A stretch of 64,000 bases of DNA from Deltaproteobacteria bacterium. Its GTDB lineage: Bacteria > Desulfobacterota > Binatia > Binatales > Binataceae. Below the pieces are notes generated by a model. That model worked only from the letters and a program-made list of their open reading frames with translations, ran no database searches and was not told where the DNA came from. The stretch covers positions 9,755 to 73,754 of the forward strand of contig JAJYRQ010000007.1 in NCBI GenBank assembly GCA_021794015.1, given 5' to 3'. A program made the translations under genes and the position numbers. Positions 36,936 to 64,000 of this stretch are shown here, in pieces (within the stretch, counting starts at the first letter, position 1; every line of letters begins with the position of its first letter).

Positions 36936-38300
36936 ATGGCCGGAAGCATTGGTCCAATAAGCCTCCCCAACTACGCGGGCGTCGACTTTAACCAGATTCT
37001 GCAGTCGATCGAGGCCGCCGGGCAGGTCCCCATCGACCAGCTCCAGCAGGAAGTGAGCACGGAGAACTCGGCGGTCACGGCTTTGGGGCAGATAGGCAGC
37101 GATCTGAGCACGCTGGAGAGCGCGCTCACCCAATTCCAGACCATGGGCGCGCAGACGCCGATGGCTGCGACGGTCTCCAGCGGAGCGCCGCTTACGGCCA
37201 CGGTTGACTCCACCGGCGGCGCTCAGGCCGGCAGCTATTCCGTCTCGGTAAGCCAGCTTGCGCAGGCGCAGGTAAGCGTCTCGCAGGGGTATTCCAGCGC
37301 CTCGGATGCCGTCGGAACGGGCACGGTCACGCTTACCGTGGGAAGCACCAACTACACGGTGACGCTCACCAGCTCGAACGACACGCTGCAGGGGCTGGCC
37401 GATGCGGTCAACAGTTCCGGAGCGCCGGTTACCGCCCAGGTGCTGGACACCGGCAGCGGATCGACTCCCTACGTTCTGGAGCTGAGTGCCGCGGCAACTG
37501 GGACCAACGATGCCTTCAGCGTAAGCTCAAGCCTAAGCGGCGGCACGGCGCCCGCTTTCACCACGACCGTGGCGGCGCAGAATGCAGCGCTAACGGTTAA
37601 CGGCGTCGCTTTCGCCTCGCAGAGCAACACTGTCACCGACGCGATCGCCGGGGTAACCCTGGGCCTGAGCGGCGCCGGCGGGCCTTACACCGTTACGGTG
37701 GCGCAGGACACGGCAAGCGAGAGCCAGGCGATCTCGGCGTTTGTTTCCGCCTACAACAAGCTTCTCACGGACGTGGCTTCGAACACGCAAACGCAGCCGG
37801 GGCAGACGCCGCCGCCCTTGGCCAGCAACGGCGCAGTCGAGTCGATCGGTCTGGGGCTTCAGATCGGCCTTGACGGCATCAACCTGTCCGATCTCGGCAT
37901 CACCGTCGACAACAATGCCACCACCAACAACAACGGCCAGTTGGTCTTCGACCAGACATCGTTCTTGAACGCGGTCTCGACCGACCCAAGCGGGGTTCAG
38001 CAGGCCTTTTCCCAGGTTTATAACGCGCTTTATCCGATGGTCAGCTCGGCGCAAACGCCGACTACCGGCCTGATCCCTTCGGAAACCACCTCGTTTAACA
38101 ACCTGATCAATCAGCAAGACCAGCAGATTGGCACGCTGACCTCTCAGCTCCAACAGCAGGAGCAGATGTTCATCAGCGAGTCAGGCCAGGTGCAGGCGGA
38201 AATGGCCTACTACGCCAATATCGCCCAGCTCTTCCTGACCAGCAGCACCACCGGCTCCGGCAGCGGTCTCTCCAGCGGCACGCTGGCGTCGGTGGCATAG
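36936..38300 (+). CDS. fliD: flagellar filament cap protein FliD
   Basis: 'LPNYAGVDFNQILQSIEAAGQVPIDQLQQEVSTENSAVTALG' and a C-terminal coiled coil 'QQIGTLTSQLQQQEQMFISESGQVQAEMAYYANIAQLF'. Confidence 0.85.
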   Translation: MAGSIGPISLPNYAGVDFNQILQSIEAAGQVPIDQLQQEVSTENSAVTALGQIGSDLSTLESALTQFQTMGAQTPMAATVSSGAPLTATVDSTGGAQAGSYSVSVSQLAQAQVSVSQGYSSASDAVGTGTVTLTVGSTNYTVTLTSSNDTLQGLADAVNSSGAPVTAQVLDTGSGSTPYVLELSAAATGTNDAFSVSSSLSGGTAPAFTTTVAAQNAALTVNGVAFASQSNTVTDAIAGVTLGLSGAGGPYTVTVAQDTASESQAISAFVSAYNKLLTDVASNTQTQPGQTPPPLASNGAVESIGLGLQIGLDGINLSDLGITVDNNATTNNNGQLVFDQTSFLNAVSTDPSGVQQAFSQVYNALYPMVSSAQTPTTGLIPSETTSFNNLINQQDQQIGTLTSQLQQQEQMFISESGQVQAEMAYYANIAQLFLTSSTTGSGSGLSSGTLASVA

Positions 38301-38306
38301 GGTCGT

Positions 38307-40523
38307 ATGAAAGGACCAGGCGCGGCGCTGAACGGAGCAGCACCATTGCCCCCGACGGCGGGGAGCGCCGCCGCAGCGCGCCAGCCGGCCTTAAGCTCGG
38401 TAAGCGACGAGGCAGGGCGCTATCGGGCGCGTGGCGACCGTCTTGCCCTTAAAGGACAACTTGAACTTGCGGCCCAGGCTTACGCGCGCGTGCTGGAGAT
38501 AAATCCCGACGACGCTGTTGCTCATTCCAACCTGGGCGCGGTGCTCATCAGATTGGGCGCCCTGGCGGAAGCCGGCCTGCACCTAAGCCGCGCGGTCGAG
38601 TTGGCGCCCGATCTGGCCGACGCATATTCCAACCAAGCCTGCCTGCTGGTGCGGCTGGGGCGCTTTAGCGAGGCCGGCCAGAGCGCCCGGCGCTGCCTTG
38701 AGCTAAAGCCGTCGCACGTCGAGGGATGGATCAACTTGGGAGGGGCTTTCGCCGGCGCGGGCTTTAGTGGGCAAGCCAAGCGATGTTTGTTGCAGGCGGC
38801 CAAGCTTGCGCCCAACCGCGCCCGTGTCTGGCTGGACCTGGCGGACCTGCTGTGGCAAAACCGCGAGTTCGAGTTGGCCTTGAAATCCTGTCAACGGGCG
38901 CTGGCGCTCGATCCGGCTGCGCCCCAGGCGCAGGCGCTTCTGGGTGCGGTGCAGAGCGTGCTGCACGGACCTGACGCCGGGATCGTGCACCTGGTCCGCG
39001 CGCTGGCGTTTGACCCTCGAAACCCGGCGACGCTCGACACCCTGGGCGCGCTGCTGGCGCAACAGGGCAAGCCGCAGGCGGCGCAGGGCGCCTACCTGAA
39101 GGCGCTCGAAGTGGGAGCAGGCGCCCGGGCCAGCGCGATCAAACTCAAGCTTGCCGCCTTGGCGCCGGTGATACCGGAATCGACCGCCGAGATTCTTGCC
39201 TGGAGAAAGCGGGCCGACACGAGGCTTGCAGCACTGGTTAAAGACGACAGCCTAAAGCTCACAGATCCCTACCGGGAGGTGAATCTGGTGAGCTTCTATC
39301 GGGCGTACCACGGACTTAACGAGGCAGGGTTAAACCGCCGCTTTGCAGAGGTCTACCTCAAGGCATGCCCCGAGTTGGGCTGGACGGCGCCGCACTGTCA
39401 GAACTGGAAACGGCCGAGGCATTTGCGCCTGGGAATGATTACGGCTTTCGAGCAGACGCACATCGTGGGCGAGCTGTATCGGGCCATTGCGCGGCTGTTC
39501 GATCGCCGGCGCTTCGAGGTCTTTGGCCTTTACTCGCCGCGTTTGGCGAAAGATCCCCGGTCCATTGCGCCTGAGCTGGACGGAGTTGTGAGCTATGCGC
39601 CGGCGCTGGCGCCGGCCCGCGCAGCGATTGCCGAGGCGAGGCTCGACGTTCTTTTCCACCTGGACGTCTTCATGGACCCGTTCAGCTATTTTCTTAGCTT
39701 TGCGCGGCTGGCGCCGATCCAGTGTACGACCTGGGGCCATCCGCTAAGCACTGGCGTGCCCAACATGGATTACTTCATTTCGGCTGAGGACTGGGAGGTG
39801 CCCGGCGCCGAGGCGCACTATACCGAGCGGCTGGTAAGGCTAAAGGCGCTGCCGATGTACTTCGAGCGGCCGCCGGTTCCGGAAAGGGCTTTCGAGCGCG
39901 AGCGCCTGGGGGTGGACAGGGAGGCCAGGCTTTACCTCAGCCTGCAGAGCCTGTTCAAGCTGCATCCTGATTTTGACGCCGCGTTGGCCGGAGTTCTAAG
40001 GCGCGACTCAAAGGGCGTGGTGCTGTTGCTAAGCGGCAATGCGGCACACTGGGATGCGCTCTTTAGGCGGCGTTTTGAGCAGGCTTTTCCCGACGTTGCC
40101 GCGCGGGTTTTCTTGCTGCCGAAGCTTACGCGGCGCGACTACCTGGCACTGCTCAAGGCGAGTGACGCGGTGCTCGACCCGTTTCACTGGTCGGGGGGCA
40201 ACACGACCCTCGAGGCGCTTGCCTGTGGCGTGCCGGTGCCGACGCTTGCGAGCGAGTACCTGCGCGGCAGGCTGACGCTGGGCTTTTACCGCAGGATGGG
40301 GATCGCCGAGCTGGTGGTCCAAAGCTGTGATGAGTTCGTCGATCTCAACGTTCGGATTGCCAACGACCGGCCGTTTAGGCAAGTCCTGCAGGCCGCGGTC
40401 GAGGAGCGTCTAGCGCGGCTCTGGCAGGACCAGGGCGGAATCGAGGCGCTGGAGGAATTTTTCCTTGAAACAGCCGAGAAACAAGAATCTCAGTCGCGAA
40501 GCGATGCAACCGATATCGCCTAA
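38307..40523 (+). CDS. TPR-repeat + GT41-like glycosyltransferase (FlmG-like candidate flagellin glycosyltransferase)
   Basis: The N-terminal 330 aa contain repeated TPR units ('AHSNLGAVLIRLGALAEA', 'AYSNQACLLVRLGRFSEA' and others). The C-terminus resembles an O-GlcNAc-transferase fold: 'TTWGHPLSTGVPNMDYFIS...DPFHWSGGNTTLEALACGVPVPTL'. Confidence 0.65.
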   Translation: MKGPGAALNGAAPLPPTAGSAAAARQPALSSVSDEAGRYRARGDRLALKGQLELAAQAYARVLEINPDDAVAHSNLGAVLIRLGALAEAGLHLSRAVELAPDLADAYSNQACLLVRLGRFSEAGQSARRCLELKPSHVEGWINLGGAFAGAGFSGQAKRCLLQAAKLAPNRARVWLDLADLLWQNREFELALKSCQRALALDPAAPQAQALLGAVQSVLHGPDAGIVHLVRALAFDPRNPATLDTLGALLAQQGKPQAAQGAYLKALEVGAGARASAIKLKLAALAPVIPESTAEILAWRKRADTRLAALVKDDSLKLTDPYREVNLVSFYRAYHGLNEAGLNRRFAEVYLKACPELGWTAPHCQNWKRPRHLRLGMITAFEQTHIVGELYRAIARLFDRRRFEVFGLYSPRLAKDPRSIAPELDGVVSYAPALAPARAAIAEARLDVLFHLDVFMDPFSYFLSFARLAPIQCTTWGHPLSTGVPNMDYFISAEDWEVPGAEAHYTERLVRLKALPMYFERPPVPERAFERERLGVDREARLYLSLQSLFKLHPDFDAALAGVLRRDSKGVVLLLSGNAAHWDALFRRRFEQAFPDVAARVFLLPKLTRRDYLALLKASDAVLDPFHWSGGNTTLEALACGVPVPTLASEYLRGRLTLGFYRRMGIAELVVQSCDEFVDLNVRIANDRPFRQVLQAAVEERLARLWQDQGGIEALEEFFLETAEKQESQSRSDATDIA

Positions 40524-41316
40524 ATGGGCCGCCCAGGCCAGTCGCCGCCTGCATGCCTACCTGGACGCGCTTGCAGCTTCACCCAAGCTGGTGGCCGACG
40601 ACGGCCGGCTCTACGACGTCTATCCTGTGGGCCTTACCCCGGAGCGGGCCGGACTTCTGGTCGAGGTGTGCCGCAGCGCGCGGCCGCGGGCCACCCTGGA
40701 AGTGGGCATGGCCTTGGGCGTCTCGACCCTGACTATTCTGGAAGCGCTTCTCGAAGGCGGCCCCATGGCCAGCCGCCACGTGGTAATCGACCCGTTTCAG
40801 CAAAGCCAGTGGCGCAACGCAGCGCGGCGCTCGCTTAGGCTGCTTGGAGTCGAGGAGCTGGTCGAGTTTTACGAAGAGTCGTCGCTGGCCGTGCTGCCCC
40901 GGATGGTTGGCGAAGGCCGGCGTTTCGATCTGATATTTGTCGACGGCAACCATCGCTTCGACTACGCCTTTGTCGATTTCCGCTTTGCCCACGAGCTTCT
41001 GACAGCCGGGGGAGTCGTCGTGCTGGACGATACCTGGCTTGACGCGCTGCATCTTACGGTTCGTTACGCCGAGACCAACCTGGGCTACACGATTTGCGCG
41101 GCCGCCGGGCGAACTATGGGCCGGCCGGCGATTTTGGCGTTGCGCAAGCCGGCGGAAGAACCGCGCCGAGGCTGTTCGCACTTTGAATCGTGCGGCTGCC
41201 AGGATTTTGTCCCGTTCTTCGACGGGCCGGACGCGGTCGTGCCGGTGCCGTCAGAGGAAGCCGATCTCGGGCGGCGCGCGGATGGCATGGCAGGTGTAGA
41301 GTGCGCCGAAGCGTGA
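40504..41316 (+). CDS. class I SAM-dependent methyltransferase
   Basis: 'LEVGMALGVSTLTILEAL' (motif I GxGxG-like), 'DLIFVDGNH' and 'GGVVVLDD'. The ORF-track start at 40465 overlaps the glycosyltransferase. Confidence 0.55.
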   Translation: MQPISPKWAAQASRRLHAYLDALAASPKLVADDGRLYDVYPVGLTPERAGLLVEVCRSARPRATLEVGMALGVSTLTILEALLEGGPMASRHVVIDPFQQSQWRNAARRSLRLLGVEELVEFYEESSLAVLPRMVGEGRRFDLIFVDGNHRFDYAFVDFRFAHELLTAGGVVVLDDTWLDALHLTVRYAETNLGYTICAAAGRTMGRPAILALRKPAEEPRRGCSHFESCGCQDFVPFFDGPDAVVPVPSEEADLGRRADGMAGVECAEA

Positions 41317-41517
41317 AAAAGCGGTGTCAGTGCCGCTGCTGACTGCGACCGCGTCGGCGGGCAATCTCGGTTGCTCGGCGGTGCTGAAAAGGGGGGAGCG
41401 GTCCGGCCGGTAGCGGCCAAGGGTGGGGCGCCCCGCAAGGGCGTCTCACCCGGAAAATTCCGAGCGCTGGACGAAGCAAGCCGGCGAGCCGGCACGCGAA
41501 CCGAAAAGAGGAGTAAA

Positions 41518-41907
41518 ATGGCAGCGTCTCTGACTTATTCACGCATGCAGGCGATTACCACCGAGGGCGAGCGCGCCTTCGCTCAGCTTTACGTGCGCCT
41601 TGCCCGCTGGTGCGGCGAGTTGCTCGACCTTTGCCGCGCTCAGGAACTGCAGCGCTATGACGCCTTGATCGAACGCTCGATCTACGTCATCGGCATAATG
41701 GACGGCCTCATCGACGTGTCGCGCCACTACCAACTGGCATGCCGGATACTTAGCCTCCATCGTTTCGCGGTGCGCAGCCTTGTCAAGGCCAAGCTCAATC
41801 CCGGCGACGGCGAGCTGGCCGACTTGGCCAAGGTTTTCGCTACGCTCGGCGAGACTTTTGAGCTGATGGCTCGCCGGGGCGCAGGGCGCGAAGACGCCGC
41901 CGGCTAG
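41518..41907 (+). CDS. FliS-like flagellin export chaperone (tentative)
   Basis: ATG at 41518 follows GAGGAG. The 129-aa all-helical protein carries 'SIYVIGIMDGLIDVSRHYQLACRILSLHRFAVRSL', which resembles the FliS helical bundle. Its position directly follows the flagellin, cap and glycosylation genes. Confidence 0.35.
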   Translation: MAASLTYSRMQAITTEGERAFAQLYVRLARWCGELLDLCRAQELQRYDALIERSIYVIGIMDGLIDVSRHYQLACRILSLHRFAVRSLVKAKLNPGDGELADLAKVFATLGETFELMARRGAGREDAAG

Positions 41908-42123
41908 CGGGCTGCCTCACACCTGCGCCCACTAAGCGCGCGCTGTCGTTGCCGGTGCCGGCCGGCCGCGGCGCGGCAGCCAGGCGACCCGCCGCGCCGT
42001 AACGCCTTCCGCCCTGCTCCCGGCAGGGAGAGGGCGGTGCGAGGCATCGAGTGAGGAACCTTTTTATGGTACCGGACGCTGCCGGACCCAGCCGCTCGGG
42101 GCGTCACAGCCGCGCCTTGGCCG

Positions 42124-42525
42124 TCAGGCGGCTTGGACCTCGATCCGGTGCGTCCTGGCCTGCTCGACCTTGGGCAGATAGAGTTCGACTACGCCGCTGC
42201 GCAGAACGGCGCGGATTTTCGAGCGATCAATCATCTCATCCAAGATAAATTGCCGGTAGTAGCCGTCGACGGCGTACTCGGTATAAAGCGGCGTCAGCTT
42301 CTTATCCTGTTCGAGCGAGGACATTGCGCTCAGAGTCAGCAGATCGCCATCGACGGTCGCCTCGAGGCTGCCGTCGGCAACGCCGGGCACGTTGGCGTAT
42401 AGCACCAGGTGATCGTCGTACTCGACTATATCGACATCCGGCGACAGGCGGTGTTGCGGCCGGCTGTTCGGCGCATCTTTAAGTTGGTTCGCGGCCGGGG
42501 CCGCGAGTTTTTGTCCGGCGAACAT
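42124..42525 (-). CDS. Hsp20/alpha-crystallin small heat-shock protein
   Basis: ATG at 42525 follows AGGGAGG. The product carries 'DVDIVEYDDHLVLYANVPGVADGSLEATVDGDLLTLSA...AVLRSGVVELYLPK'. Confidence 0.75.
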   Translation of the reverse strand: MFAGQKLAAPAANQLKDAPNSRPQHRLSPDVDIVEYDDHLVLYANVPGVADGSLEATVDGDLLTLSAMSSLEQDKKLTPLYTEYAVDGYYRQFILDEMIDRSKIRAVLRSGVVELYLPKVEQARTHRIEVQAA

Positions 42526-42556
42526 GATTGGGACCTCCCTAAGCTGGCGTCGTTGG

Positions 42557-43063
42557 TCAGGCATTCTGAACGGCGATCCGCTGCGGCCGCGCGGGTTGCG
42601 CCTTCGGCACCTCGACGGTGAGCAGTCCGGCTTCGTACCTGGCGCTTGCCTTATCGGCCTCGAGTTCCTGCGGCAGCAAAAAGGAGCGGGAGAAGCTTCC
42701 GCTCGGACATTCACGACGCAGGAAGCCGAGCGGTTGCCGGGCGCCGTTGGGCGAGCTGCGCTCGCCGCTTACGGTAAGCGTGCGGCCTTCAATTGATACG
42801 CTAAAATCGCCCGGCTTGAGCCCGGGTGCTTCGAAGGTCAGCACGGCGGCATCGCCGCGGTCAAATATATTGACCGGAGGATAGGCGTTGGCAGCCGGCA
42901 CTCCCAAGCTCAGGGCCGGATTCTGCCAAAAGCCTTGAAGGGCGTTTTCCAGGGAACGCAGGTCCATCCATGGGCTAAGTTCTAATCTTGCTGCCAGGGC
43001 GGGCATGTTGGTAATACCTCCTGCAAAGCCGAGACCGAGTCGGCCTGCTTGAAACCTAAGCAT
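42557..43063 (-). CDS. Hsp20/alpha-crystallin small heat-shock protein (second copy)
   Basis: 'PVNIFDRGDAAVLTFEAPGLKPGDFSVSIEGRTLTVSGER...ARYEAGLLTVEVPK'. Confidence 0.7.
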   Translation of the reverse strand: MLRFQAGRLGLGFAGGITNMPALAARLELSPWMDLRSLENALQGFWQNPALSLGVPAANAYPPVNIFDRGDAAVLTFEAPGLKPGDFSVSIEGRTLTVSGERSSPNGARQPLGFLRRECPSGSFSRSFLLPQELEADKASARYEAGLLTVEVPKAQPARPQRIAVQNA

Positions 43064-54928: not shown

Positions 54929-55848
54929 TTCTCCTCCTTGTCGGATGCGCAAGCGCCGGCGGGCAGCTCAAATCCGGCCCAGCGCTCGATAAGCGTTATC
55001 AGGCTGGTGAGGTCGGCCTGCGGACCCAGCGCGTCGCGGGCGTGCAAGAGATGCCCTTCGGTTGCCGCCAGCAGCGGCGCCGGCACATCGCAGGAGCGGG
55101 CGAGCCGGGCCGCGATGCCGAGGTCCTTGGCCATCAGACCGAGCGAAAAGCCGTAGTCGAAAGTGCGCGGCAACACGGCGCGGGGAATCTTCACCTCGAG
55201 GGCATGCGAGCGCGCCGTGCCGGTCTTCCACACATCGACCATCACCGCCGGGTCCAAGCCGGCCCGTGCGCCGATCACCAACGCCTCGCACGAGGCCCAG
55301 AAGGCAGCCGCCGAAAGGTAGTTGTTGAGCGCTTTCATCGCATCGCCCGCGCCCAGGGCGCCGACCTGCCGGATGGTCGCGCACATATGGGCCAGCAGCG
55401 GCCGCCAGCGCTCGAAGACCTCGCCGCTGCCGCCCACCATCGTGGTAAGCTCGCCGGTTTGTGCGCGGGAAACGCCGCCGCTTACCGGCGCATCCAGCAT
55501 CGCCACCCCGGCCCGCGCCAGTTCCTGGCCGAGTTGGCGCGTCGGCCCCGGCGCCGAGCTGGACATGTCGATCAGCACCGCGCGGCGATGCGGCCCGCTA
55601 AGCGCGCCGCGCTCGCCGAGCACGGCCTCGCGCACCTCGGCGTCGGTCGGCAGCATCGTGATCACCGCCTCGCCCGCCAGCTCGGCGGGAAAGCGCGCCA
55701 CGCTTAGCCCCTGCCGGCGAAAAGGCTCAAGCGCCTGTTCAGAAAGGTCGCACACCGCCAGGCTTAAGCCGGCAGCCAGCAGGCGGCGCGCCATGGGATT
55801 GCCCATCCGGCCAACGCCGATGAAGAGCACCTTTCCAGTTTCGCTCAT
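54925..55848 (-). CDS. NAD(P)-dependent 3-hydroxyisobutyrate-dehydrogenase-family oxidoreductase
   Basis: 'KVLFIGVGRMGNPMARRLL' Rossmann and 'GAGDAMKALNNYLSAA' in the catalytic region. Confidence 0.75.
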   Translation of the reverse strand: MSETGKVLFIGVGRMGNPMARRLLAAGLSLAVCDLSEQALEPFRRQGLSVARFPAELAGEAVITMLPTDAEVREAVLGERGALSGPHRRAVLIDMSSSAPGPTRQLGQELARAGVAMLDAPVSGGVSRAQTGELTTMVGGSGEVFERWRPLLAHMCATIRQVGALGAGDAMKALNNYLSAAAFWASCEALVIGARAGLDPAVMVDVWKTGTARSHALEVKIPRAVLPRTFDYGFSLGLMAKDLGIAARLARSCDVPAPLLAATEGHLLHARDALGPQADLTSLITLIERWAGFELPAGACASDKEEK

Positions 55849-56011
55849 AACGTCATCCTCAGATACGACACCGGCCGCAGCTTCTGCTTTGGATACAAGG
55901 GAATGCGCCAATATACAAGCCGGCGCGGCCCGGGTTGCCGGCCCCGACGCTATCGGCTAAGACTTCGGCTAGCTTACAGCCCAAGACGTTGCAACCGCAG
56001 GAGAGGAGAGC

Positions 56012-57037
56012 ATGGCACCGTTGAAGAATCGGCAGTGGCTGCTGGCGGCGCGGCCGCAGGGCATGGTCAAGGAAAGCGATTTCCGCTGGCACGAGACGAC
56101 CGTCGACGCGCCGGCCGAGGGGCAGCTATTGGTGCGCAACCTGGCGCTCTCCTTCGATCCGACGCAGCGCGGCTGGATGTCGCGCGACACTTACGTGCCG
56201 GCCGTCCCGCTCGGGCAGGTGATGCGCGCCGGGGCCGTGGCGCAGGTGGTCGAATCGCGGCTGGAGGGCTTCGCCCCCGGCGACCTGGTACAGGGCGTGT
56301 TCGGCTGGGAAGACTATACGCGGACCGACGGCCGCGGGCGCTTCGGCTTGCGCAAGCTGGCGCCGGGAACCGATCCGCTGCTGGCGCTCTCGCTGCTTGG
56401 CTTAACCGGCCTGACCGCCTACTTCGGCACGCTCGAGATCGGGCGGCCCAGGCCGGGAGAGAGCTTCGTGGTCTCAGGCGCGGCGGGCGCCACCGGCTCG
56501 GTGGCCGGCATGATTGCCAAGCTCAAGGGATGCCGGGTTGTCGGGATCGCCGGCGGGCAGGCCAAGTGCGACTGGCTTATTAGCGAAGCGGGCTTCGATC
56601 TGGCCATCGACTACAAGCGCGAGGACGTCGGCCAGGCGCTTTCGCGCCACTGCCCGGATGGAATCAACGTCTATTTCGACAATGTCGGCGGCGCCATTCT
56701 CGATCTCGCGCTGGAGCGGCTGGCGCCTGCGGCGCGGGTGGTGCTGTGCGGGGCGATTTCGCAGTACAACGAGCCGGCCGGCCCGGCGGCGCGTCCGCCG
56801 CGCAACTACTTTTACTTGATTTGGCGCGGCGCGCGGATGGAGGGTTTTCTCGTCACTCAGTTTGCCGCACGTTTTCCCGAGGCGCTGGCCGATCTTTCCG
56901 CCTGGCACAGCCAGGGCCGGCTCAAGAACAGGATCGACCTGCAGCACGGGCTGGAAAACGCCCCGCGCACCTTGATTCGGCTCTTTACCGGCGACAACTT
57001 CGGCAAGCAGCTCCTTAAGCTTGCCGACCCGCGCTAG
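56012..57037 (+). CDS. NADP-dependent oxidoreductase (MDR family, CurA/YncB-like)
   Basis: 'FVVSGAAGATGSVAGMIAKLKGCRVVGIAG' and 'INVYFDNVGG'. Confidence 0.8.
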   Translation: MAPLKNRQWLLAARPQGMVKESDFRWHETTVDAPAEGQLLVRNLALSFDPTQRGWMSRDTYVPAVPLGQVMRAGAVAQVVESRLEGFAPGDLVQGVFGWEDYTRTDGRGRFGLRKLAPGTDPLLALSLLGLTGLTAYFGTLEIGRPRPGESFVVSGAAGATGSVAGMIAKLKGCRVVGIAGGQAKCDWLISEAGFDLAIDYKREDVGQALSRHCPDGINVYFDNVGGAILDLALERLAPAARVVLCGAISQYNEPAGPAARPPRNYFYLIWRGARMEGFLVTQFAARFPEALADLSAWHSQGRLKNRIDLQHGLENAPRTLIRLFTGDNFGKQLLKLADPR

Positions 57038-57123
57038 CCGGCGCGCTTGCTTGAGAGCGCCGGCCGGATCGTCCATGCCCGCGGATCGTCGTCGCGCTGC
57101 GCGCTCGGGCCGTGCCGCCAGGG

Positions 57124-58119
57124 TCAAATCCGAATCCGCTCAACCTCGTCGAGTGCGACCGCGTCGCGGGTGCGGTCGTAGAGCTTGGTGGTGCGCGGCG
57201 ACTCGTGCGCGGCGATCTGCTGGGCGTGCTCCAGCGTACCGCCGTTTTGCAGGTAGGTGGTGATGCCGGTTGCGCGGAAGGTGTGGCAGCAAGTCGAGTA
57301 GGGCAGCCCGGCCTTTAATGCCCGCCGCTTGATCATTTGCAGGACGTCGATCCGTGTAAGCGGGTTGGCCGCCAGCCGTCCTCCCTTGCGCACCGTCCGG
57401 AACAGCGGCCCCTTGCGCTCGGCCTTAAGCCCGGCTGCGGCGATCCAGGCGTCGATCGCTTCCTCCAGCTTATGATGGCAGGGCACCTCGTGGCGCTTGC
57501 CGCCCTTCTCATGGAGCCGCACCCAGGCGCGCCGGCCCTGGCTGAAGTAGTCCTCGACCCGCATCGCCACGACCGCTCCGACCCGGGCAAAGCTGTAGAC
57601 CATGGTTGCGATCAGCGCCCGGTCGCGAACGCCGATTAACGTATCGGTTTCAATTGAATCGATCAGCCGTCGGGTCTCCTCGGCGCTTAAAACCGGCGTC
57701 TTGCCCCGCTTGATAACGTATTTCGGCCCGCGCACCGAGCCGGCCGGATTGGAACGCAGGATGCCGCCGGTGACCAGGTAGTCAAAAAGCCGGCGAATCG
57801 CCGCCAGGTGTTGCTTGACGGTTGGCTTGGCCGCCCTTTGCTGAAGTCTTTCGACGTAGGCGGCCACCACGGTCGGCCCGATATCGTCCAGACTGAAGCG
57901 GCGCCGATCGCAGAAATCAAAGAACTGCCTTACCGCGCGGGCGTAGGCCAGGCGCGTGTTGCGGTTGCGAATCGCGGCGGCGAAAAACTCGATGAACCGC
58001 CGGCTTGCCTGCTCGCCGCCGGCACGGATCGCCGCCGGCAGGGCCTCCATTCCCGCCCGGACAAGGGCCGGCGGCGGCGCAACCTCGTCCGTCAGAAGAA
58101 TCGGCGCTTTGCCTGACAT
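57124..58119 (-). CDS. tyrosine-type site-specific recombinase/integrase
   Basis: N-terminal SAM-like domain and a C-terminal catalytic box 'HTFRATGITTYLQNGGTLEHAQQIAAHESPRTTKLYDRT' with the R...HxxR...Y signature. Confidence 0.85.
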   Translation of the reverse strand: MSGKAPILLTDEVAPPPALVRAGMEALPAAIRAGGEQASRRFIEFFAAAIRNRNTRLAYARAVRQFFDFCDRRRFSLDDIGPTVVAAYVERLQQRAAKPTVKQHLAAIRRLFDYLVTGGILRSNPAGSVRGPKYVIKRGKTPVLSAEETRRLIDSIETDTLIGVRDRALIATMVYSFARVGAVVAMRVEDYFSQGRRAWVRLHEKGGKRHEVPCHHKLEEAIDAWIAAAGLKAERKGPLFRTVRKGGRLAANPLTRIDVLQMIKRRALKAGLPYSTCCHTFRATGITTYLQNGGTLEHAQQIAAHESPRTTKLYDRTRDAVALDEVERIRI

Positions 58120-58143
58120 TCCGACTTCCAGCCATTCTGGCAG

Positions 58144-58506
58144 ATGATGGAAGCGTTGGCCAACAAGGTGGGCCGGCGCGCAACGGTCGTGTTGCCGGCG
58201 AAGCTGCGCCGCCGCCTCGGTATCGAAGAGGGGTCCTTCGTGGTCACCGAAGAGCGCGAGGATGGGATACTGATCCGCCCGGCTGCCGTGCTACCGGTCG
58301 AAGTCTATACAGCCGAGCGCAGGGCTGAGTCCCTGCTTAACAACGCGCTCGATGCTGAGGATTACCCGCGTGCACGCGCCGAAGTGAAGCGGCTGGGGCT
58401 GGATCCCGACCGCACCAAGCACCGCCGGCCCCAGGCGGCCAAGCCGCGAAGCCGGCAAAATCAAGCCGGCGCTGCGGGTAGGGCAGGGCGCCGGCGCCCT
58501 GGGTAA
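58144..58506 (+). CDS. AbrB/MazE/SpoVT-family antitoxin-like protein (orphan)
   Basis: 'RRATVVLPAKLRRRLGIEEGSFVVTEEREDGILIRP' is a swapped-hairpin AbrB fold. No cognate toxin ORF is adjacent. Confidence 0.5.
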   Translation: MMEALANKVGRRATVVLPAKLRRRLGIEEGSFVVTEEREDGILIRPAAVLPVEVYTAERRAESLLNNALDAEDYPRARAEVKRLGLDPDRTKHRRPQAAKPRSRQNQAGAAGRAGRRRPG

Positions 58507-58678
58507 TCTTCCGAGGCAGGTAGACGCGACAAGCAATGGAAGAAGGGGAAGGCCGCCGGAGAACGGCCGGCCTCGCGCAGATTCCATAAAAGCGCTTGCG
58601 TCCATCAATCCTGGCGTCCGGAAAGCCGGAAAATCGGTCGTGAACGACTTACATCCAGCCACCACTTGTTGCGTACTA

Positions 58679-58703
58679 CATGCTGTGATACATCTTAAGC
58701 ATG
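58679..58703 (+). promoter_or_regulatory. inverted repeat CATGCT-N13-AGCATG spanning the start of the RHH antitoxin gene, a candidate autoregulatory operator
   Basis: Perfect 6-bp arms at 58679-58684 and 58698-58703. The -35-like TTGCGT lies at 58669-58674. Confidence 0.3.
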
Positions 58704-58997
58704 AGCGCGTTGAGCATCAGAGTCGATCCGGAAACCGCAGCTTTTCTTGAGTGCGCGGCGCGCCAAACCGGTCGCACCAAGTCCGAACTCGTTCGCCAAG
58801 CGCTCGAGGCCCTGCGTAACCAGGAGGCTCAGCCGGTCATGCGGCCGGCCGCGGCGATGACTGGCCTGATCGGATGTTGGGACAGCGGCGGCATGCGGCT
58901 TTCCGAGCGCACGGGTGCGCGCTTCGCCCAGATGCTACAAAAGCAAAGACATGAGCACCGTACTGGTCGACGCCGGCCCGCTCGTCGCGCTGATTGA
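58701..58997 (+). CDS. ribbon-helix-helix (CopG-like) antitoxin
   Basis: 'LSIRVDPETAAFLECAARQTGRTKSELVRQALEAL'. Confidence 0.6.
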   Translation: MSALSIRVDPETAAFLECAARQTGRTKSELVRQALEALRNQEAQPVMRPAAAMTGLIGCWDSGGMRLSERTGARFAQMLQKQRHEHRTGRRRPARRAD

Positions 58998-59361
58998 TCG
59001 CAGCGATCCCTATCACGACGCCTGTCGAGAAGCTCTGAGGGAGATCGACGACCCGCTCGGCACCGTGTGGCCCGCTTTTACGGAAGCGATGTATTTGCTC
59101 AGATCATCCGCGCAGGCGCAGCGTGCGTTGTGGGACATGATCAATGTGGGCGCGGTGCGCTTCATGCCTCTCGGGAGCGACGACTGTCCCCGCATCCGTG
59201 AGCTAATGTGGAAATATCGCGATTTGCCGATGGACCTCGCGGACGCCGCTTTGGTCCGGTTGGCTGAACGTGAACGCCTGCGGCGCATTTTCACCGTGGA
59301 CCGTCAAGACTTCGAGGTTTACAGGCCGCATCGGCTCGGCCGTTTCGAGATTATTCCTTGA
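58951..59361 (+). CDS. vapC: PIN-domain toxin VapC
   Basis: 'MSTVLVDAGPLVALIDRSDPYH...DLADAALVRLAERERLRRIFTVDRQDF' PIN acidic residues. The internal ATG at 58951 is preferred to the ORF-track start at 58915. Confidence 0.7.
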   Translation: MSTVLVDAGPLVALIDRSDPYHDACREALREIDDPLGTVWPAFTEAMYLLRSSAQAQRALWDMINVGAVRFMPLGSDDCPRIRELMWKYRDLPMDLADAALVRLAERERLRRIFTVDRQDFEVYRPHRLGRFEIIP

Positions 59362-59402
59362 GCTTTCCCCGCCCGGGACAGGCGCTCAGCACACCGGCGC
59401 CT

Positions 59403-59882
59403 CGCTTTCTCCTGGACCGGATATTTCTCGACGCCAACGTACTGTCTTCGGCCGCATACCTGAAGAATTCCCGGCTGGGCCGGCTCTGACGGCTTGAAGA
59501 TGCCGAGCTTCTGAGCTCGGCCTTCGCCGTCGAGCAAGCGCGACGCAACCTGGCCTTGGACCGTCGCGCGGCGCTGGCCCGCCTTGAACGGCTGACCCTT
59601 GCGCTGAAACTGCTCAACCCGCCGCGCGACCTCAAGCTGCCGGCAGGCGTCCGGCTTGACTTCAACGATCAGCCGATCCTGCTGGCCGCGATCCACGGCA
59701 AGGCTGATTTTCTGCTGACCGGCGACGGCCGCCACTTCGGCCATCTTTTCGGCAAGCGCATCGAGGGCGCGATGGTGTTGCGGCCGGCGCAGTACTTCCA
59801 GCGCCGGGGGCGCCGCCGCTTTCCCGCCCGGAACCACCGCCTCGCCGACCATGGGCAAGCATTGGACTTAGTCCGAGGCTAA
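59403..59882 (+). pseudogene. PIN-domain toxin-like gene interrupted by an in-frame TGA at 59487-59489
   Basis: Frame 0 reads 'LDRIFLDANVLSSAAYLKNSRLGRL*RLEDAELLSSAF...DFNDQPILLAAIHGKADFLLTGDGRHFGHL', so the N- and C-terminal PIN motifs are separated by a single TGA. There is no ATG at the 5' end. Confidence 0.45.
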
Positions 59883-59886
59883 GTCT

Positions 59887-60135
59887 ATGATCAGCGACAT
59901 GAGCCGAGCGGTCAACGTACACGAAGCCAAAACGCGCTTCTCGAAGCTGCTCAAGCGCGTCGAACTCGGCGAAGAGGTGGTAATTGCCAAAGCCGGCCGC
60001 CCGGTGGCGCGCCTGGTTCCGTTTGTACTTGCCGGAGCCTTGCGGCGGCCCGGTACCGCCAAAGGTCGAATCACGGTTGCGCCTGACTTCGACGCGCCGC
60101 TCTCCGAAGAACTCGCAAGCGCCTTCCTCGGGTGA
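59887..60135 (+). CDS. Phd/YefM-family antitoxin (VapB-type)
   Basis: 'RAVNVHEAKTRFSKLLKRVELGEEVVIAKAGRPVARLVPF'. Its stop overlaps the vapC GTG as GTGA. Confidence 0.7.
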   Translation: MISDMSRAVNVHEAKTRFSKLLKRVELGEEVVIAKAGRPVARLVPFVLAGALRRPGTAKGRITVAPDFDAPLSEELASAFLG

Positions 60136-60518
60136 AGCTTCTGCTCGACACGCACGCCTTTCTTTGGTGGGTTAGCGACAATCCCAAGCTCTCGCCTCGC
60201 GCGCGCCGGCTAATCGCCGCCGGCACAAACCAAGTCTTCTTCAGCGCCGCCAGCGCCTGGGAAATAGCAATCAATACGGGCCTGGGCCGGCTAACAGTGG
60301 CCGGCGACCTGCAAGAGTTTATGCTCGAGCAGCTAAGGCTCAACGGCTTCGAGGTGCTGCCAATCCACCTCAAGCATGCGCTCTTAACCCACCGGCTGCC
60401 GCCACACCACAGCGACCCGTTTGACCGGATGCTGGTTGCCCAAGCGATGGCTGAGGGCTTGGCGATCCTGAGCGCCGATCCGGCGCTTGGCCGCTACCGG
60501 GTGCGCGTGGTCTGGTGA
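60132..60518 (+). CDS. vapC: PIN-domain toxin VapC
   Basis: 'KLLLDTHAFLWW...SAASAWEIAIN...SDPFDRMLVAQAMAEGLAILSADPAL'. Confidence 0.8.
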   Translation: MKLLLDTHAFLWWVSDNPKLSPRARRLIAAGTNQVFFSAASAWEIAINTGLGRLTVAGDLQEFMLEQLRLNGFEVLPIHLKHALLTHRLPPHHSDPFDRMLVAQAMAEGLAILSADPALGRYRVRVVW

Positions 60519-60519
60519 G

Positions 60520-61620
60520 CGGGCGGATCGCACCACCATCGAGGAGCAAAGCGCGGGCTTCGCCAGGCAGCTTCCAGCGCAGAGGCCGGCAATCGACTCA
60601 ACCACCGCTTCCGCGCCGCAGGCGGCGCCGTCATTATTGCTAATTGCATATTGCAGTGACAGAGTCGTCCTGAGCCGGCTCGTTTGGTGCGTGATTCTCG
60701 GCTGCAGTTGCCACGCGGAGAATCGTAACGTTTCGCCCGCGCTGCGGCAGCATAACCCGGGATTCCCCTCGGCAGGGACACGCGTCGCGCATCCCCGCAT
60801 TGCACTCCCGCTGGCCGGGCAAGCTGTCGTGCGGCGAGCACCGCGCGGGGGAGTGACAGCAGTGGGGCGCGCACCTCCTTTTCCTGATTCCTCTCCCCCG
60901 CCGGGGGAGAGGATCAAGGAGAGGGGGGCGCACCGCGCAAGCGGAGTCGAAGGCAGAAGGGGGGCGCACCCAGAGGCTCGAGGTGGCGCCAGCGGCCCCC
61001 CTCACCCTTCCCTCTCCCCCCAAGGGGAGAGGGAGACAAGAACGAGCACCGCGCGCGGGAATGACGGCAGTGGGGCGCGCGGCTCCTACTTGTCACCCCC
61101 GCGCTCCCTTCTCCCTGTCACCCTGAGCGAAGCGAAGGGCCTACGCGAAGCGATTTGTCCTCCAGCGGCGTGGCGAACCCACCTGCCTGCGCCGACGCGC
61201 CAGGCAGGTCGCTGCGCGTAGATTCTTCGCTCCGCAGACCGCGCTCAGAATGACATCCGCGGTCGACGGTCACCGGTGAGGCTGCCTCCAGCACGAGCAG
61301 GGCTGCCCTGCAGCGAGCGCCGCGCGGAAATGACGGCAGTGGGGCGTCCGGCTGCTGCTTGTCACCCCCGCGCGTGGCCGTTGCATCGCGGCAGGGACAC
61401 GCGTCGCGCATCCCCTTTTCCTGATTCCTCTCCCCCGCCGGGGGAGAGGATCAAGGAGAGGGGGGACGCTCCGCGCAAGCGCAGTCGAAGGAAGAGGGGG
61501 GACGCACCGCGCGCGAGGGGTCCCGGGCCCACGGCGCCACGCCATCGCGTGCCGCCTGGCTCGTGTGCCGACCAGCGCGGCGTTACGCTCCCGCTGGCCG
61601 TGCCGCACCCGAGGTGCTCG
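60520..61620. repeat. non-coding block of mosaic direct repeats and GC-rich hairpins
   Basis: A 26-nt exact direct repeat (GGCAGGGACACGCGTCGCGCATCCCC) lies at 60771-60796 and 61390-61415. A 52-nt exact repeat lies at 60877-60928 and 61414-61465 and extends to about 95 nt at roughly 90% identity. Three copies of a CGCGCGG..ATGAC.GCAGTGGGGCG unit lie at 60843, 61053 and 61320. Hairpins CTCTCCCCC-gcc-GGGGGAGAG and CCCTCTCCCC-caa-GGGGAGAGGG are present. Confidence 0.7.
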
Positions 61621-61751
61621 ACCAGGTGATCGAAGGACTCAACGAGAACATCGGGCGAGCCAAGCCGCTGTTCGGGCCTGATTTATCCATCATAAAGGAC
61701 ATTATGATAGGAAAAAAAGGAAGGCGCGCCGAGTCCTAAACGATCGCGCGA

Positions 61752-63569
61752 TTAGACTCCCCACAGCCGTTCCCGACAGAACGCTTCGGCCTGAGAGAAT
61801 CTGCGTATCGATCCGCCAAAGAGGCCTGCCCGGAGTGCCGGCCATTCCTCTTTCGCCTCTGCGGCCTCTCGGACGATCTCAACCCATGTCTCCTTAGCTT
61901 GCCACGCGAAGCGCCCTGGTAGCGTTATCGGCCAGTCAGGGGCAACATCCCTATGGACGAGCGTGAGGAAGCACTCGAAGCGGTGGAAGCATGCGTCATA
62001 TTGAGCGTCCTCAGGCAGCAGGTCCTGAAATGATTCACGGAGTGCGGCGTGAATGTGCTGGCTGAATGGTGTCGGCTTGGAATGGAGAACACCCTTAACC
62101 CCTGGCAGGTTGACCGCCAAGCGCTCATCGAGAATCATTCCCGTATTCACTAGCCGGATCAATGGAAGTTCGCCCGCTACGGAGCGCACCTTAATTTGCG
62201 GGGAAAGCAACGCCGCGAGCGCCTCGTACCCTGGCGCCGCCACCGCTGCAACTCCTCCAGCGTATAAAACGAGCAATGCCGGGTACCACCTGAAGTTGAA
62301 CCACTCCCCATCGCCAAAATGCGTTACCGGAGGGTTCGCGATCCGCCTGAGGCACCCAGCCCAATATGCCGCATGCTTCGGCGCACCCCAACGGCATCCC
62401 GTCAGAACAATGGCGCGAAGACGCCCGGTGAGCGACTCGTACTCTTTAAGCCGACCGGCAATTTCCGGAACCCTAAACGGCACGCCCAGAACGGGAAACC
62501 GAGCGTCGGTAAGCTTGGTGTGAACCGTCTCGGTTTCGCCAATGACAAGCTTGTGAAGTTCGATCCTATGTATGTCGTCGACCAGATATTTCTGCAACCG
62601 ATCGATGACATCAGCGGTCGCGGGCACTTTGGGCGCTTCGGTGTTCGGAAGCTCGACTAGCTCTGTGCTCTCTTCCGGCGCAATCGCGCGTACTAACTCC
62701 GCTATGACGTATTCGAGACCCCTTGCAGAGGATACAGCCACCCGGTCTGCCAATGTTGGCGAGTAGGCTCTTATCTCATTTGGGCCAATTTCATGCCATA
62801 CCGGCAGTAAGACTTTCGCCCCGCCAACTTCGCGCGCAACCAATCCGTCCAATTCCTTTTGAGGCCAGTTCTTCTGCAAAAAACTTGGGCTAATTACCAC
62901 CACGCCGAACTTGGAGCGTGCCAAACCCCGATCAATTGACTGGCGCAAGCTGTCTCCTACCCTAAGTGTGGCTTCATCGAACCACACCCTGAGCCCGCGC
63001 TCCTGTAGCCCTTTAGCCAGCGGACGCACAAAAGCCTCCTTGTCTTCGCTCGCGTGGCTCACGAACACCTCCCACTCTGCGTAGGGTGTCCCTTGGCCTC
63101 GCGGAATGACAGGCTCTTTGGGCAGAGCCTCCCAGAGAATATCACTGGGTTCACAGTCGACGGCTCCGGCAAGGTTCTTCACCTTTTCGACGCCGTCGGC
63201 GAGCGAACTTACCGCTCCCTCCGGCCAACCATCTTGGGCTGTTTTCGCACACTCCTGTTGACGCCTCTGCGTCACAAACATCAGCGCAGCCTTCACATAT
63301 CGCAGGTTCCCTACCGAGATCCCCCTGACGACGATCCCCTGGGCGTTCGCCTCGCCTAGTTGTTGCTCCCCAAATTCGAGTAGCTGGGTCAGGTCAGCGA
63401 CTTCGTGTTCATATGGTGGGTATGTCGCACCATGTTCGATCGCGCGCTGGTTCCACGCCTTGAGCTCGTCGCAAAGAAGACGCAGCCCTTCCTGGACAAC
63501 TTGGTAACGCATGCGCGAAAGCCTGAAATCTCCGGTAAGCGTCGAGTCAAACTCATAGTGATAGCCCAT
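61752..63569 (-). CDS. 605-aa protein with a central TIR domain flanked by unassigned N-terminal (about 160 aa) and C-terminal (about 300 aa) regions
   Basis: 'EVFVSHASEDKEAFVRPLAKGLQERGLRVWFDEATLRVGDSLRQSIDRGLARSKFGVVVISPSFLQKNWPQKELDGLVAR...VLLPVWH' matches a bacterial TIR pattern: the FISHASEDK-type betaA strand, the VW.D...L.VGDSL loop and the W..KEL helix with a conserved Glu. GAGGTGA Shine-Dalgarno 7 nt before the ATG. The gene is lower in GC than its neighbours. Confidence 0.8.
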   Translation of the reverse strand: MGYHYEFDSTLTGDFRLSRMRYQVVQEGLRLLCDELKAWNQRAIEHGATYPPYEHEVADLTQLLEFGEQQLGEANAQGIVVRGISVGNLRYVKAALMFVTQRRQQECAKTAQDGWPEGAVSSLADGVEKVKNLAGAVDCEPSDILWEALPKEPVIPRGQGTPYAEWEVFVSHASEDKEAFVRPLAKGLQERGLRVWFDEATLRVGDSLRQSIDRGLARSKFGVVVISPSFLQKNWPQKELDGLVAREVGGAKVLLPVWHEIGPNEIRAYSPTLADRVAVSSARGLEYVIAELVRAIAPEESTELVELPNTEAPKVPATADVIDRLQKYLVDDIHRIELHKLVIGETETVHTKLTDARFPVLGVPFRVPEIAGRLKEYESLTGRLRAIVLTGCRWGAPKHAAYWAGCLRRIANPPVTHFGDGEWFNFRWYPALLVLYAGGVAAVAAPGYEALAALLSPQIKVRSVAGELPLIRLVNTGMILDERLAVNLPGVKGVLHSKPTPFSQHIHAALRESFQDLLPEDAQYDACFHRFECFLTLVHRDVAPDWPITLPGRFAWQAKETWVEIVREAAEAKEEWPALRAGLFGGSIRRFSQAEAFCRERLWGV

Positions 63570-63658
63570 CCTGCGTCACCTCGACTGGCATAAGTAAACT
63601 GTTTCTCTGCTGCTTCCGAGCGTGAGCGGTGCAATCGACTTACGGCTTACCGGTTTTC

Positions 63659-63964
63659 CTACGCTGCACGTAGGCGAACGCGCCGGTTCCCAAAGCTAGC
63701 GACGACTTCGATCTCGCCTCCGAGAGCGGCCACGTACCGCTGCAATGTGGACAGTCGGTAGTCTGTCCGGCTTTCGAGCCGCGATATTTCCGACTGCGCC
63801 TTCCTCAGGGCTTCCGCCAGCTCCTCCTGCGTCTTTCCGGCAGCCTCGCGCAATTCCCTGAGGTCCATTTCGAGCAGTTGATCCGCTACGGCGCGGTCGA
63901 TCTCTTTGAGCTTCTTGGGCGAAAACTTCCGTGCCCGGACGTCGCGCCACGGCTTGGTCCTCAT
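63659..63964 (-). CDS. XRE-family HTH protein, HigA-type antitoxin-like
   Basis: 'WRDVRARKFSPKKLKEIDRAVADQLLEMDLRELREAAGKTQEELAEALRKAQSEISRLESRTDYRLSTLQRYVAALGGEIEV' is a HigA-like HTH. Its ATG overlaps a TGA of an upstream ORF as ATGA. Confidence 0.7.
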   Translation of the reverse strand: MRTKPWRDVRARKFSPKKLKEIDRAVADQLLEMDLRELREAAGKTQEELAEALRKAQSEISRLESRTDYRLSTLQRYVAALGGEIEVVASFGNRRVRLRAA

Positions 63965-64000
63965 TTTCTCTTCTCCTCTCTTGCCAGATCGGCCAAGTAG
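63961..64000 (-). CDS. 3' end of an upstream minus-strand ORF running off the window (possible HigB/RelE-type toxin partner)
   Basis: The frame is open from the window edge ('...YLADLAREEKRK*') and ends in an ATGA overlap with the XRE start. Its identity cannot be determined from 13 codons. Confidence 0.25.
   Translation of the reverse strand, partial: YLADLAREEKRK

Follow-up and report, generated by a model that had tools for sequence, protein, structure and literature searches.

Gene content of the region

The window analysed here, by which we mean a whole stretch of 64,000 nucleotides from contig JAJYRQ010000007.1, ends inside a chromosomal accessory region of ~10.5 kb (~57.1-67.6 kb), which has a CurA-like oxidoreductase gene on its left and a glycogen phosphorylase gene on its right. 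This region contains one tyrosine recombinase gene, one orphan AbrB-fold gene, six type II toxin-antitoxin (TA) loci, one gene encoding a TIR-domain protein and a block of dispersed repeats. The TA loci, which are in various states of decay, are RHH-PIN, a solitary PIN_3 gene (a pseudogene here), Phd-PIN, Gp49/HigB-XRE, AbrB-PIN and HigB-HigA. The host, an uncultured soil bacterium, is probably a member of the Binataceae, and the nearest named protein relatives are found in metagenome-assembled genomes (MAGs) of Candidatus Binataceae. The window takes in the left two thirds of the region, and ~3.6 kb more lies past position 64000, where coordinates are extrapolated from contig DAHZEH010000057.1 (locus L001; 221 kb; MAG GCA_027403145.1), which is 100% identical to positions 55001-64000 of the window. 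Gene identities are based on a listing of open reading frames (ORFs) and on Pfam and NCBIfam profile searches, while defence genes were called by PADLOC. The features are as follows.

56012-57037: CurA-like oxidoreductase gene, convergent with the recombinase gene
57037-57064: palindrome with 11-bp arms and a 6-bp spacer (sequence reading and palindrome scan)
57124-58119, minus strand: tyrosine recombinase, 331 aa (Pfam Phage_integrase, 1.8e-20, and Phage_int_SAM_1)
58144-58506, plus strand: AbrB/SpoVT/MazE-fold gene, 120 aa (Pfam MazE_antitoxin, 1.9e-9; TIGR01439)
58701-58997, plus strand: RHH antitoxin (Pfam RHH_1, 3.4e-7; called as 98 aa in contig L012)
58951-59361, plus strand: PIN (VapC-type) toxin, 136 aa here and in all related contigs (Pfam PIN, 1.4e-10)
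59358-59882, plus strand: pseudogene of a PIN_3-family toxin, W44* (Pfam PIN_3, 2.2e-10 for the intact version in L097)
59887-60135, plus strand: Phd/YefM-type antitoxin, 82 aa (Pfam PhdYeFM_antitox, 4.5e-10; TIGR01552)
60132-60518, plus strand: PIN (VapC) toxin, 128 aa (Pfam PIN, 1.9e-14)
60821-61587: strain-variable, non-coding repeat block of 767 bp (repeats D1-D3, D6 and D7; hairpins I2 and I4)
61752-63569, minus strand: TIR-domain protein, 605 aa (Pfam TIR_2, 1.2e-21)
63659-63964, minus strand: XRE-family helix-turn-helix antitoxin (HigA-like), 101 aa (Pfam HTH_3, 1.1e-9)
63961-64314, minus strand, only 63961-64000 in the window: Gp49/HigB-like (RelE-superfamily) toxin (Pfam Gp49, 3.6e-16)
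64438-64851 (extrapolated), minus strand: PIN gene
64788-65135 (extrapolated), minus strand: AbrB gene
65586-65882 (extrapolated), minus strand: HigA gene (HTH_3)
65941-66258 (extrapolated), minus strand: HigB gene
66574-67623 (extrapolated; 6342-7391 of L001), plus strand: 349-aa protein without a family match
From 67712 (extrapolated): glycogen phosphorylase gene, then an acetyl-CoA-synthetase-like gene and MetE

An initial annotation, which had listed a recombinase, an AbrB gene, an RHH-PIN pair, an interrupted PIN gene, a Phd-PIN pair, repeats, a TIR gene and a HigA-like gene, agrees with this map, all of these being present by ORF listing, Pfam and NCBIfam. However, the recombinase gene is not transcribed away from the housekeeping genes, as was thought. 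It lies on the minus strand with its stop codon at 57124 and points toward the oxidoreductase gene, with which it is convergent. Nor does the region end at 64000, since the cluster continues to ~67.6 kb on contig DAHZEH010000057.1. The HigA-like gene, although present, is not solitary: a Gp49/HigB toxin gene, which runs off the window, overlaps its start by 4 bp.

As for the TA modules, a VapBC-type layout is seen in the RHH-PIN pair (58701-58997 and 58951-59361), in the Phd-PIN pair, whose genes overlap by 4 bp, and, beyond the window, in the AbrB-PIN pair (64788-65135 and 64438-64851). Both VapC-type toxins of the window give near full-length matches to the PIN profile of Pfam, and their translations contain the acidic active-site residues (D7, E46, D96/D99 and D118 for 58951-59361; D6, E44, D95 and D116 for 60132-60518). 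The PIN_3 gene, whose start overlaps the stop of the preceding PIN gene by 4 bp, is interrupted by a single TGG to TGA change at 59487-59489 (W44*), which confirms the internal stop noted earlier in a PIN gene. The nonsense change belongs to the window lineage, and the gene is intact, with 174 aa, in strains L097, L098 and L099. The reversed gene order of HigBA-type loci is found twice. In contigs L001 and L093, Gp49 (63961-64314) stands ahead of XRE (63659-63964), the two overlapping by 4 bp. The second case is HigB (65941-66258), which stands ahead of HTH_3 (65586-65882). A gene past the window that had been called as a "92-aa unknown" was considered as a truncated toxin, which we rejected because its 137-codon PIN frame is fully open from a TTG start.

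The first AbrB gene (58144-58506) has no adjacent toxin gene. Its product would be an orphan antitoxin of the VapB type or, alternatively, would control the promoter region that it shares with the recombinase gene, and it may regulate the recombinase rather than act as an antitoxin. The recombinase and AbrB genes diverge from start codons that are only 24 bp apart (58119-58144), so that the promoters must overlap coding DNA.

The TIR-domain protein

The TIR protein consists of three parts: a conserved N-terminal domain (residues ~1-160), the TIR domain (165-296) and a helical C-terminal domain (~309-597). In the PDB, the TIR domain matches AbTIR (1.6e-45), the matches to AbTIR, TcpB/BtpA and PdTIR spanning E = 1e-38 to 1e-45, and it is 44-55% identical to these proteins in structural alignments. 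Foldseek comparison of the predicted model, which has a mean predicted local distance difference test score (pLDDT) of 77, gives a target-normalised TM-score of ~0.9 with TcpB/PdTIR. E239, the glutamate in the WxxxE motif, does not vary among 31 homologues. PADLOC matches PDC-S66 on the TIR part (5e-59) and PDC-S65 on residues 309-597 (8e-42). We found nothing on PDC-S65 in the literature, and neither of the domains flanking TIR matches a Pfam family. The N-terminal domain (~160 aa) and the TIR domain together form the conserved core of a wider family, the members of which have exchanged their C-termini. Among the matches listed, there are ~7 full-length homologues (59-75% identical), in addition to the query's own cluster.

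Two multigene arrangements were considered and rejected. The TIR domain matches ThsB profiles, as in Thoeris, but there is no ThsA-like gene in the region. A conserved three-gene Gp49-XRE-TIR unit is contradicted by the TIR orthologues at loci L186 and L187, which have other neighbours. By analogy with the proteins it resembles, the TIR protein is likeliest a candidate single-gene antiphage NADase, the single-gene form being favoured because it has no ThsA-like partner and because the neighbours of its orthologues are unrelated.

Relatives of the TIR protein also lie near members of the same recombinase family in two other organisms. At L186, a full-length orthologue (71% identical) is found 1.4 kb from a decayed and more diverged copy of the recombinase (44-60% identical). 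At L103, the gene for a shorter protein that shares only the TIR domain (65.5% identity over 145 aa) is found 750 bp from a family member.

The recombinase and its family

The recombinase is a simple, arm-less Xer-like enzyme, with a SAM-like core-binding domain and no arm-binding domain. Its gene is intact, and the catalytic R-K-H-R-H-Y residues align with those of XerA and XerD. Among NCBIfam models, XerD scores 115 bits and XerC 108 bits, while the IntI model (TIGR02249) reaches 46.7 bits against a cut-off of 265 and covers residues 53-227 only. By these profile scores, the enzyme is not an integron integrase. A phage origin was also considered and rejected: there is no close relative in IMG/VR, and the best phage match is 44.7% identical.

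The family to which this recombinase belongs is large, with at least 8000 database matches. Relatives with 70-77% identity are present in other Binataceae as well as in MAGs of Acidobacteria. Locus L102 carries three copies or fragments within 19 kb and locus L104 carries two. Further contexts include TumE-type and PIN_3 TA genes (in metagenome loci), Mu/IS21 genes and a RepB primase gene. No conserved DNA flanks the homologous recombinase genes, the similarity ending at the ORF. In PLSDB, 1086 plasmid records have some match to the enzyme, most below 60% identity. The best of these (55-63% identical) come from five phyla or classes, with Planctomycetota, Alpha-, Beta- and Gammaproteobacteria among the plasmid hosts.

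We inspected 13 plasmid neighbourhoods, and in 6 of them the recombinase gene has TA genes as direct neighbours. These are AbrB-VapC, HipBA, CopG with RelB-YafQ and ParA, RHH-PIN, mobile mystery proteins A and B (Thiothrix), and a Phd-VapC-recombinase operon with 4-bp overlaps (Pararoseomonas). Among 20 sampled contexts of the family, about half have TA or TA-like genes paired within 1 kb of the recombinase gene, at times in one operon with it, and several family members had no TA neighbour. A type II TA or TA-like pair stands immediately upstream of the recombinase gene at plasmid loci L195, L208, L210, L211, L212 and L215, and at metagenome loci L190 and L194. These sequence contexts support a link between the recombinase family and mobile elements and plasmids.

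Base composition

The part of the region that lies in the window (57124-64000) has a GC content of 0.630, compared with 0.671 for the rest (1-57037). The fall in GC described in the initial annotation is therefore real, but it is clear only for part of the region. The half with the recombinase, TA genes and repeats (57038-61751) has a GC content of 0.654 and is within background, 19% of equal-sized background windows being as low or lower. The TIR-XRE part (61752-64000), at 0.580, falls below every background window. A second stretch of mildly low GC (0.62-0.65) is found at positions 35000-43000 of the window, distant from the cluster.

Codon usage, measured as GC content at third codon positions (GC3), does not have the flat profile that would have spoken for resident DNA. 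Against a background of 0.819 +/- 0.027 (30 long ORFs), GC3 is depressed in the cargo, most strongly in the TIR gene (0.625, the lowest value in the region) and in HigB (0.651). The other cargo values are 0.667 for RHH, 0.695 for Gp49, 0.711 for Phd, 0.715 for PIN (58951-59361), 0.745 for XRE, 0.752 for AbrB, 0.775 for PIN (60132-60518) and 0.783 for PIN_3. The recombinase gene stands at 0.804 and the glycogen phosphorylase gene at 0.849. The 349-aa gene, which has no Pfam or PHROGs match and separates the last TA pair from the phosphorylase gene, is at 0.749. The cargo is thus foreign and heterogeneous in composition, as expected for a mosaic origin, while the recombinase gene is not.

The left junction

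The initial annotation proposed an integrase-anchored island, with its left junction in the 86-bp spacer between the oxidoreductase and recombinase genes. In its full form, this explanation holds that the whole block was inserted by the recombinase in a site-specific way, immediately downstream of the oxidoreductase gene, with a left attachment site (attL) in the spacer and a right one (attR) past the window, and that the island is, or was until recently, active. There is something to be said for it. An intact recombinase gene sits at the very edge of the block, the cargo deviates in GC3, members of the recombinase family are carried by plasmids and found in variable settings with several copies, and there is a palindrome with 11-bp arms and a 6-bp spacer at the junction. 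This palindrome (57037-57064) reads GCCGGCGCGCT TGCTTG AGAGCGCCGGC, its first base being the last base of the oxidoreductase stop codon. We nevertheless consider the explanation unlikely, for the reasons that follow.

The palindrome has no counterpart at homologous loci, no site related to it being found downstream of 19 homologous recombinase genes. It is terminator-like, and is probably a terminator hairpin common to the two convergent genes. Palindromes of this 11-6/8-11 type number four in 10.7 kb, against 0.6 expected. We considered them as the repeated 28-bp sites that bound Xer-site (pdif-type) modules and rejected this, since the four are mutually unrelated in sequence and bracket no modules. 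Neither ARAGORN (over 53.7-74.0 kb) nor Rfam (within the window, to 64.0 kb) finds a tRNA or tmRNA gene, in keeping with the earlier remark that no tRNA is seen at the left junction. Elsewhere in the window, ARAGORN calls a 96-nt "tRNA-Asp" at 32995-33090 on the plus strand, ~20 nt overlong and inside a high-GC3 ORF on the minus strand (32252-33553). This call is probably a false positive, Rfam giving no tRNA in the window at gathering score.

Other hallmarks of an integrative element were also sought. A direct repeat of the left-junction sequence further right, which had been suggested as a check, was not found: over the 10 kb that follow the window, to 74.0 kb, the longest same-strand match to 57020-57135 measures 12 bp and lies within a housekeeping gene. 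Among the genes of 57.1-67.6 kb, there is no excisionase gene, no conjugation or mobilisation gene and no phage structural gene.

We then turned to conspecific contigs (at least 97.5% identical), the only kind obtained by three exact-protein look-ups with the 24 longest contigs read for each, about two dozen distinct places in all. Every contig examined is occupied, with no empty site, excision polymorphism or size polymorphism of the whole block. In each, the recombinase gene adjoins the oxidoreductase gene and the neighbouring genes are kept to the contig end. The next-closest oxidoreductase genes, in a set of one genome per species plus JGI metagenomes, are 73-74% identical and share no neighbouring gene. 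The same gene order in all relatives, together with no flanking repeats, had been named in advance as an outcome that would speak against an island. This is what we find, although it counts weakly since the available relatives are conspecific only.

A comparison with L198, the most divergent of the conspecific strains, locates the break more precisely. Between L198 and the window, the spacer is 97.6% identical and the recombinase gene 96.9%, which makes them as conserved as the core flank (97.6-98.0%), and colinearity breaks at codon 5 of the recombinase gene. The population-level breakpoint is therefore the 5' end of the recombinase gene and the array itself, not the 86-bp spacer. With neither tRNA nor repeat, with no empty site in the conspecific contigs examined and with a core-like spacer, the junction proposed at the spacer is not supported. 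There is no evidence that the region can still move. What is supported of the integrase-anchored island is an accessory, TA-rich region with a candidate defence gene and an intact recombinase of a mobile-associated family. An integrative element with a junction in the spacer is not.

Strain variation within the cluster

Structural variation among the conspecific strains is all internal to the cluster. The locus L198 carries a 1036-bp insertion (L198 6992-8027; window 58104/58109) exactly at codon 5 of the recombinase gene, which encodes a Phd antitoxin (83 aa) and a PIN toxin (137 aa). The original first codons of the recombinase gene are stranded beside AbrB, and the recombinase has acquired a new N-terminus, MRRE. 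In the same locus, the AbrB allele is 82.5% identical to that of the window, compared with 97-98% in the neighbouring DNA and 97.9% for RHH-PIN. This pattern suggests an exchange with a paralogous or foreign recombinase-AbrB unit.

The locus L201 has an insertion within PIN_3 (L201 1404-2801), which consists of a 5'-truncated second AbrB gene (78% identical) and an ORF of 309 aa, both co-oriented with the array, and is accompanied by a 407-bp target duplication (window 59413-59819). The 309-aa ORF has no Pfam or PHROGs match, and the insertion may be an artefact of assembly or else a novel toxin pair led by AbrB. The junctions in L198 and L201 look like products of illegitimate or homologous recombination, not of site-specific capture. 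In L097, a 485-bp deletion (window-equivalent 65003-65486; L097 ~18196-18206) removes the 5' half of the distal AbrB gene (its first 44 codons, for the DNA-binding half of the protein) together with the promoter, and leaves the PIN frame open. The distal PIN toxin of this strain would be either silent for want of a promoter or covered by another AbrB protein.

The repeat block also differs between strains. It belongs to a set of dispersed GC-rich hairpin repeats (~60770-61600), in which units of 27-61 nt, including 60-nt hairpins, are present in two or three copies each. The 767-bp block at 60821-61587 is flanked by a 13-bp direct repeat, CTCCCGCTGGCCG, and is missing from L004, L005 and L006 (on the same contigs as L098, L097 and L101, respectively), which are 99.0-99.6% identical around it. 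The block has no Rfam family, no tandem array and no copy elsewhere within the window. Five metagenome or MAG contigs (L002, L003, L008, L009 and L010) leave the locus at 61050-61104 for other genomic DNA, which carries the same repeat units at 92-95% identity. The switching contigs include both cluster halves in MAG GCA_027403045.1. The switches may mark real rearrangements, or else the assemblies may have broken at a repeat with many copies. Because contigs continue into other DNA with the same units, the block reads as a dispersed repeat similar to repetitive extragenic palindromes or miniature inverted-repeat transposable elements, present here as a strain-specific insertion.

Origin of the region

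We consider it probable that the region is a fixed, mosaic and eroding spot of TA and defence-gene accretion, which was seeded by the maintenance module of a mobile element. The evidence favours such a spot over an active, integrase-bounded island. This view draws on what is observed, namely the gene content, the intact catalytic residues, the composition, the strain-level variation and the association of the recombinase family with plasmids and TA genes. The order of events that we infer begins with the settlement at this site of a maintenance module from a plasmid or other mobile element, composed of the recombinase and a TA pair. The site would then have turned permissive, and more TA modules and the TIR gene would have been added by recombination. 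Erosion would now proceed via nonsense mutation, deletion and the orphaning of an antitoxin, in a region that is fixed in the sampled population.

The biochemical functions, like any activity of the recombinase at this locus, would be those of characterised analogues. Each antitoxin would bind and neutralise its cognate toxin and repress its own operon. Upon failure of antitoxin supply, the PIN RNases or the RelE/HigB-type ribosome-dependent mRNases would arrest growth, making loss of the DNA costly and perhaps aborting phage infection. The TIR protein would cleave NAD+ via E239 after its flanking domains had sensed a trigger, while the recombinase would act on a putative short core site.

Several points weigh against an accretion spot of this origin. 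The argument for horizontal acquisition consists of composition and family context only, and GC3 values of short genes are noisy. The recombinase itself looks native, with a GC3 of 0.804 that is near that of the host and a between-strain divergence equal to that of the core. TA genes are frequent on plasmids generally, and the adjacency of recombinase and TA genes is a raw, uncontrolled count. The L201 duplication and the contigs that switch at repeats could be assembly artefacts. Finally, the right-hand edge is drawn from GC3 and annotation only, and the 349-aa gene may be cargo or core, which leaves ~1 kb of uncertainty.

The native appearance of the recombinase is also the starting point of an alternative that we regard as rather improbable, in which there is no functional link: the recombinase would be a passenger, either resident or decaying, next to which the TA and TIR genes would have gathered independently because the site tolerates insertions. 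Host-like GC3 and core-like divergence between strains are consistent with this. So are the failure to find a recombination site, the restriction of homology between recombinase loci to the ORF, and the family members that have no TA neighbour. Against it stand the TA or TA-like pairs found within 1 kb in about half of the 20 sampled contexts, sometimes in the same operon, and the TIR relatives that are again found beside the same recombinase family in other organisms.

A bolder possibility, which we hold to be very unlikely, is that the recombinase family and its adjoining TA pair constitute an undescribed self-stabilising mobile unit, acting here as a cassette-accreting analogue of an integron without IntI or attC. 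Entry of modules at the 5' end of the recombinase gene is hinted at by the Phd-PIN insertion in L198.

Least likely of all is an integron-like or Xer-module-like platform, on which TA cassettes are captured next to the 5' end of the recombinase gene into a co-oriented array. TA cassettes are typical of sedentary chromosomal integrons, and the recombinase gene does point away from five small modules that follow one another in a single orientation, with the extra Phd-PIN pair of L198 (at the recombinase 5' end) and the AbrB-led module of L201 both inserted in the same orientation. Such a platform is contradicted by the IntI score, by the lack of any attC- or dif-like repeat common to 13 inter-module spacers, among them the spacers at the L198 and L201 insertions, by an L198 insertion that severs the first five recombinase codons and an L201 insertion that carries a truncated AbrB gene and a 407-bp duplication, and by the distal half of the region, which is on the opposite strand.

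If an accretion spot seeded by a maintenance module is the true explanation, the region is one more case of selfish TA modules and a defence gene that pile up and decay beside a mobile-element recombinase, in this instance from a poorly studied, uncultured Binatia-like lineage. Two modest leads come out of it. The first is a widespread and uncharacterised family of arm-less tyrosine recombinases, which is met repeatedly next to TA pairs on plasmids from several phyla. The second is a rare three-domain TIR protein, the flanking domains of which are without known relatives. Neither alters current concepts, and they are the only two worth following up.

Comparison with known systems

The closest parallels are found in the chromosomes of Photorhabdus, where TA pairs cluster with integrases in spots of high turnover and are eroded by deletion and by pseudogenisation of toxins (Belot et al. 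2026, PMC13617665). As in these clusters, unrelated type II TA pairs are packed here into a small stretch near an integrase-type gene, modules have been gained and lost between strains, and the modes of erosion are the same. However, our region belongs to another phylum, it contains a candidate TIR defence gene within the TA cluster, which is uncommon in Photorhabdus, and no empty site was found that would show turnover of the whole spot.

The region also resembles the maintenance regions of plasmids such as Singulisphaera pSINAC03, Pararoseomonas unnamed2 and Sphingobium pCHQ1, which carry the same recombinase family (55-63% identity). On plasmids of this type, AbrB-VapC, Phd-VapC, RHH-PIN or RelB-YafQ lies directly beside the recombinase gene. 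These regions usually have one TA pair, which is often co-transcribed with the recombinase gene, whereas the locus described here is chromosomal, has a divergent first neighbour and contains six TA loci. As to the plasmid enzymes, their role in resolution or integration is a predicted one, known from annotation only.

With sedentary chromosomal integrons, the region shares a tyrosine recombinase gene divergent from small, mostly co-oriented modules that include TA pairs, and the presence of an extra module in one strain. In contrast to integrons, it has no IntI and no attC between modules, its junctions do not look site-specific, and the cluster is spread over both strands. In the Tn3 family of transposons, TA pairs are placed beside the gene of a site-specific recombinase, the resolvase (Lima-Mendez et al. 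2020, PMC7157771). Common to both is the position of type II TA pairs (of the PIN, PIN_3, Gp49 and ParE types) next to a mobile element's site-specific recombinase gene. Unlike in Tn3-family elements, there is no Tn3 transposase, no terminal inverted repeat and no res site, and the recombinase is an Xer-like enzyme instead of TnpR, TnpI or TnpS/T.

As for the TIR protein, it shares with the NADases AbTIR, TcpB (BtpA) and PdTIR the TIR fold and the conserved catalytic glutamate, while its C-terminal domain matches PDC-S65. It differs from them by a three-domain architecture with an uncharacterised N-terminal domain, and is known here from its sequence and a predicted model. Set beside these systems, the region is genuine but unremarkable, one more representative of a type already described.

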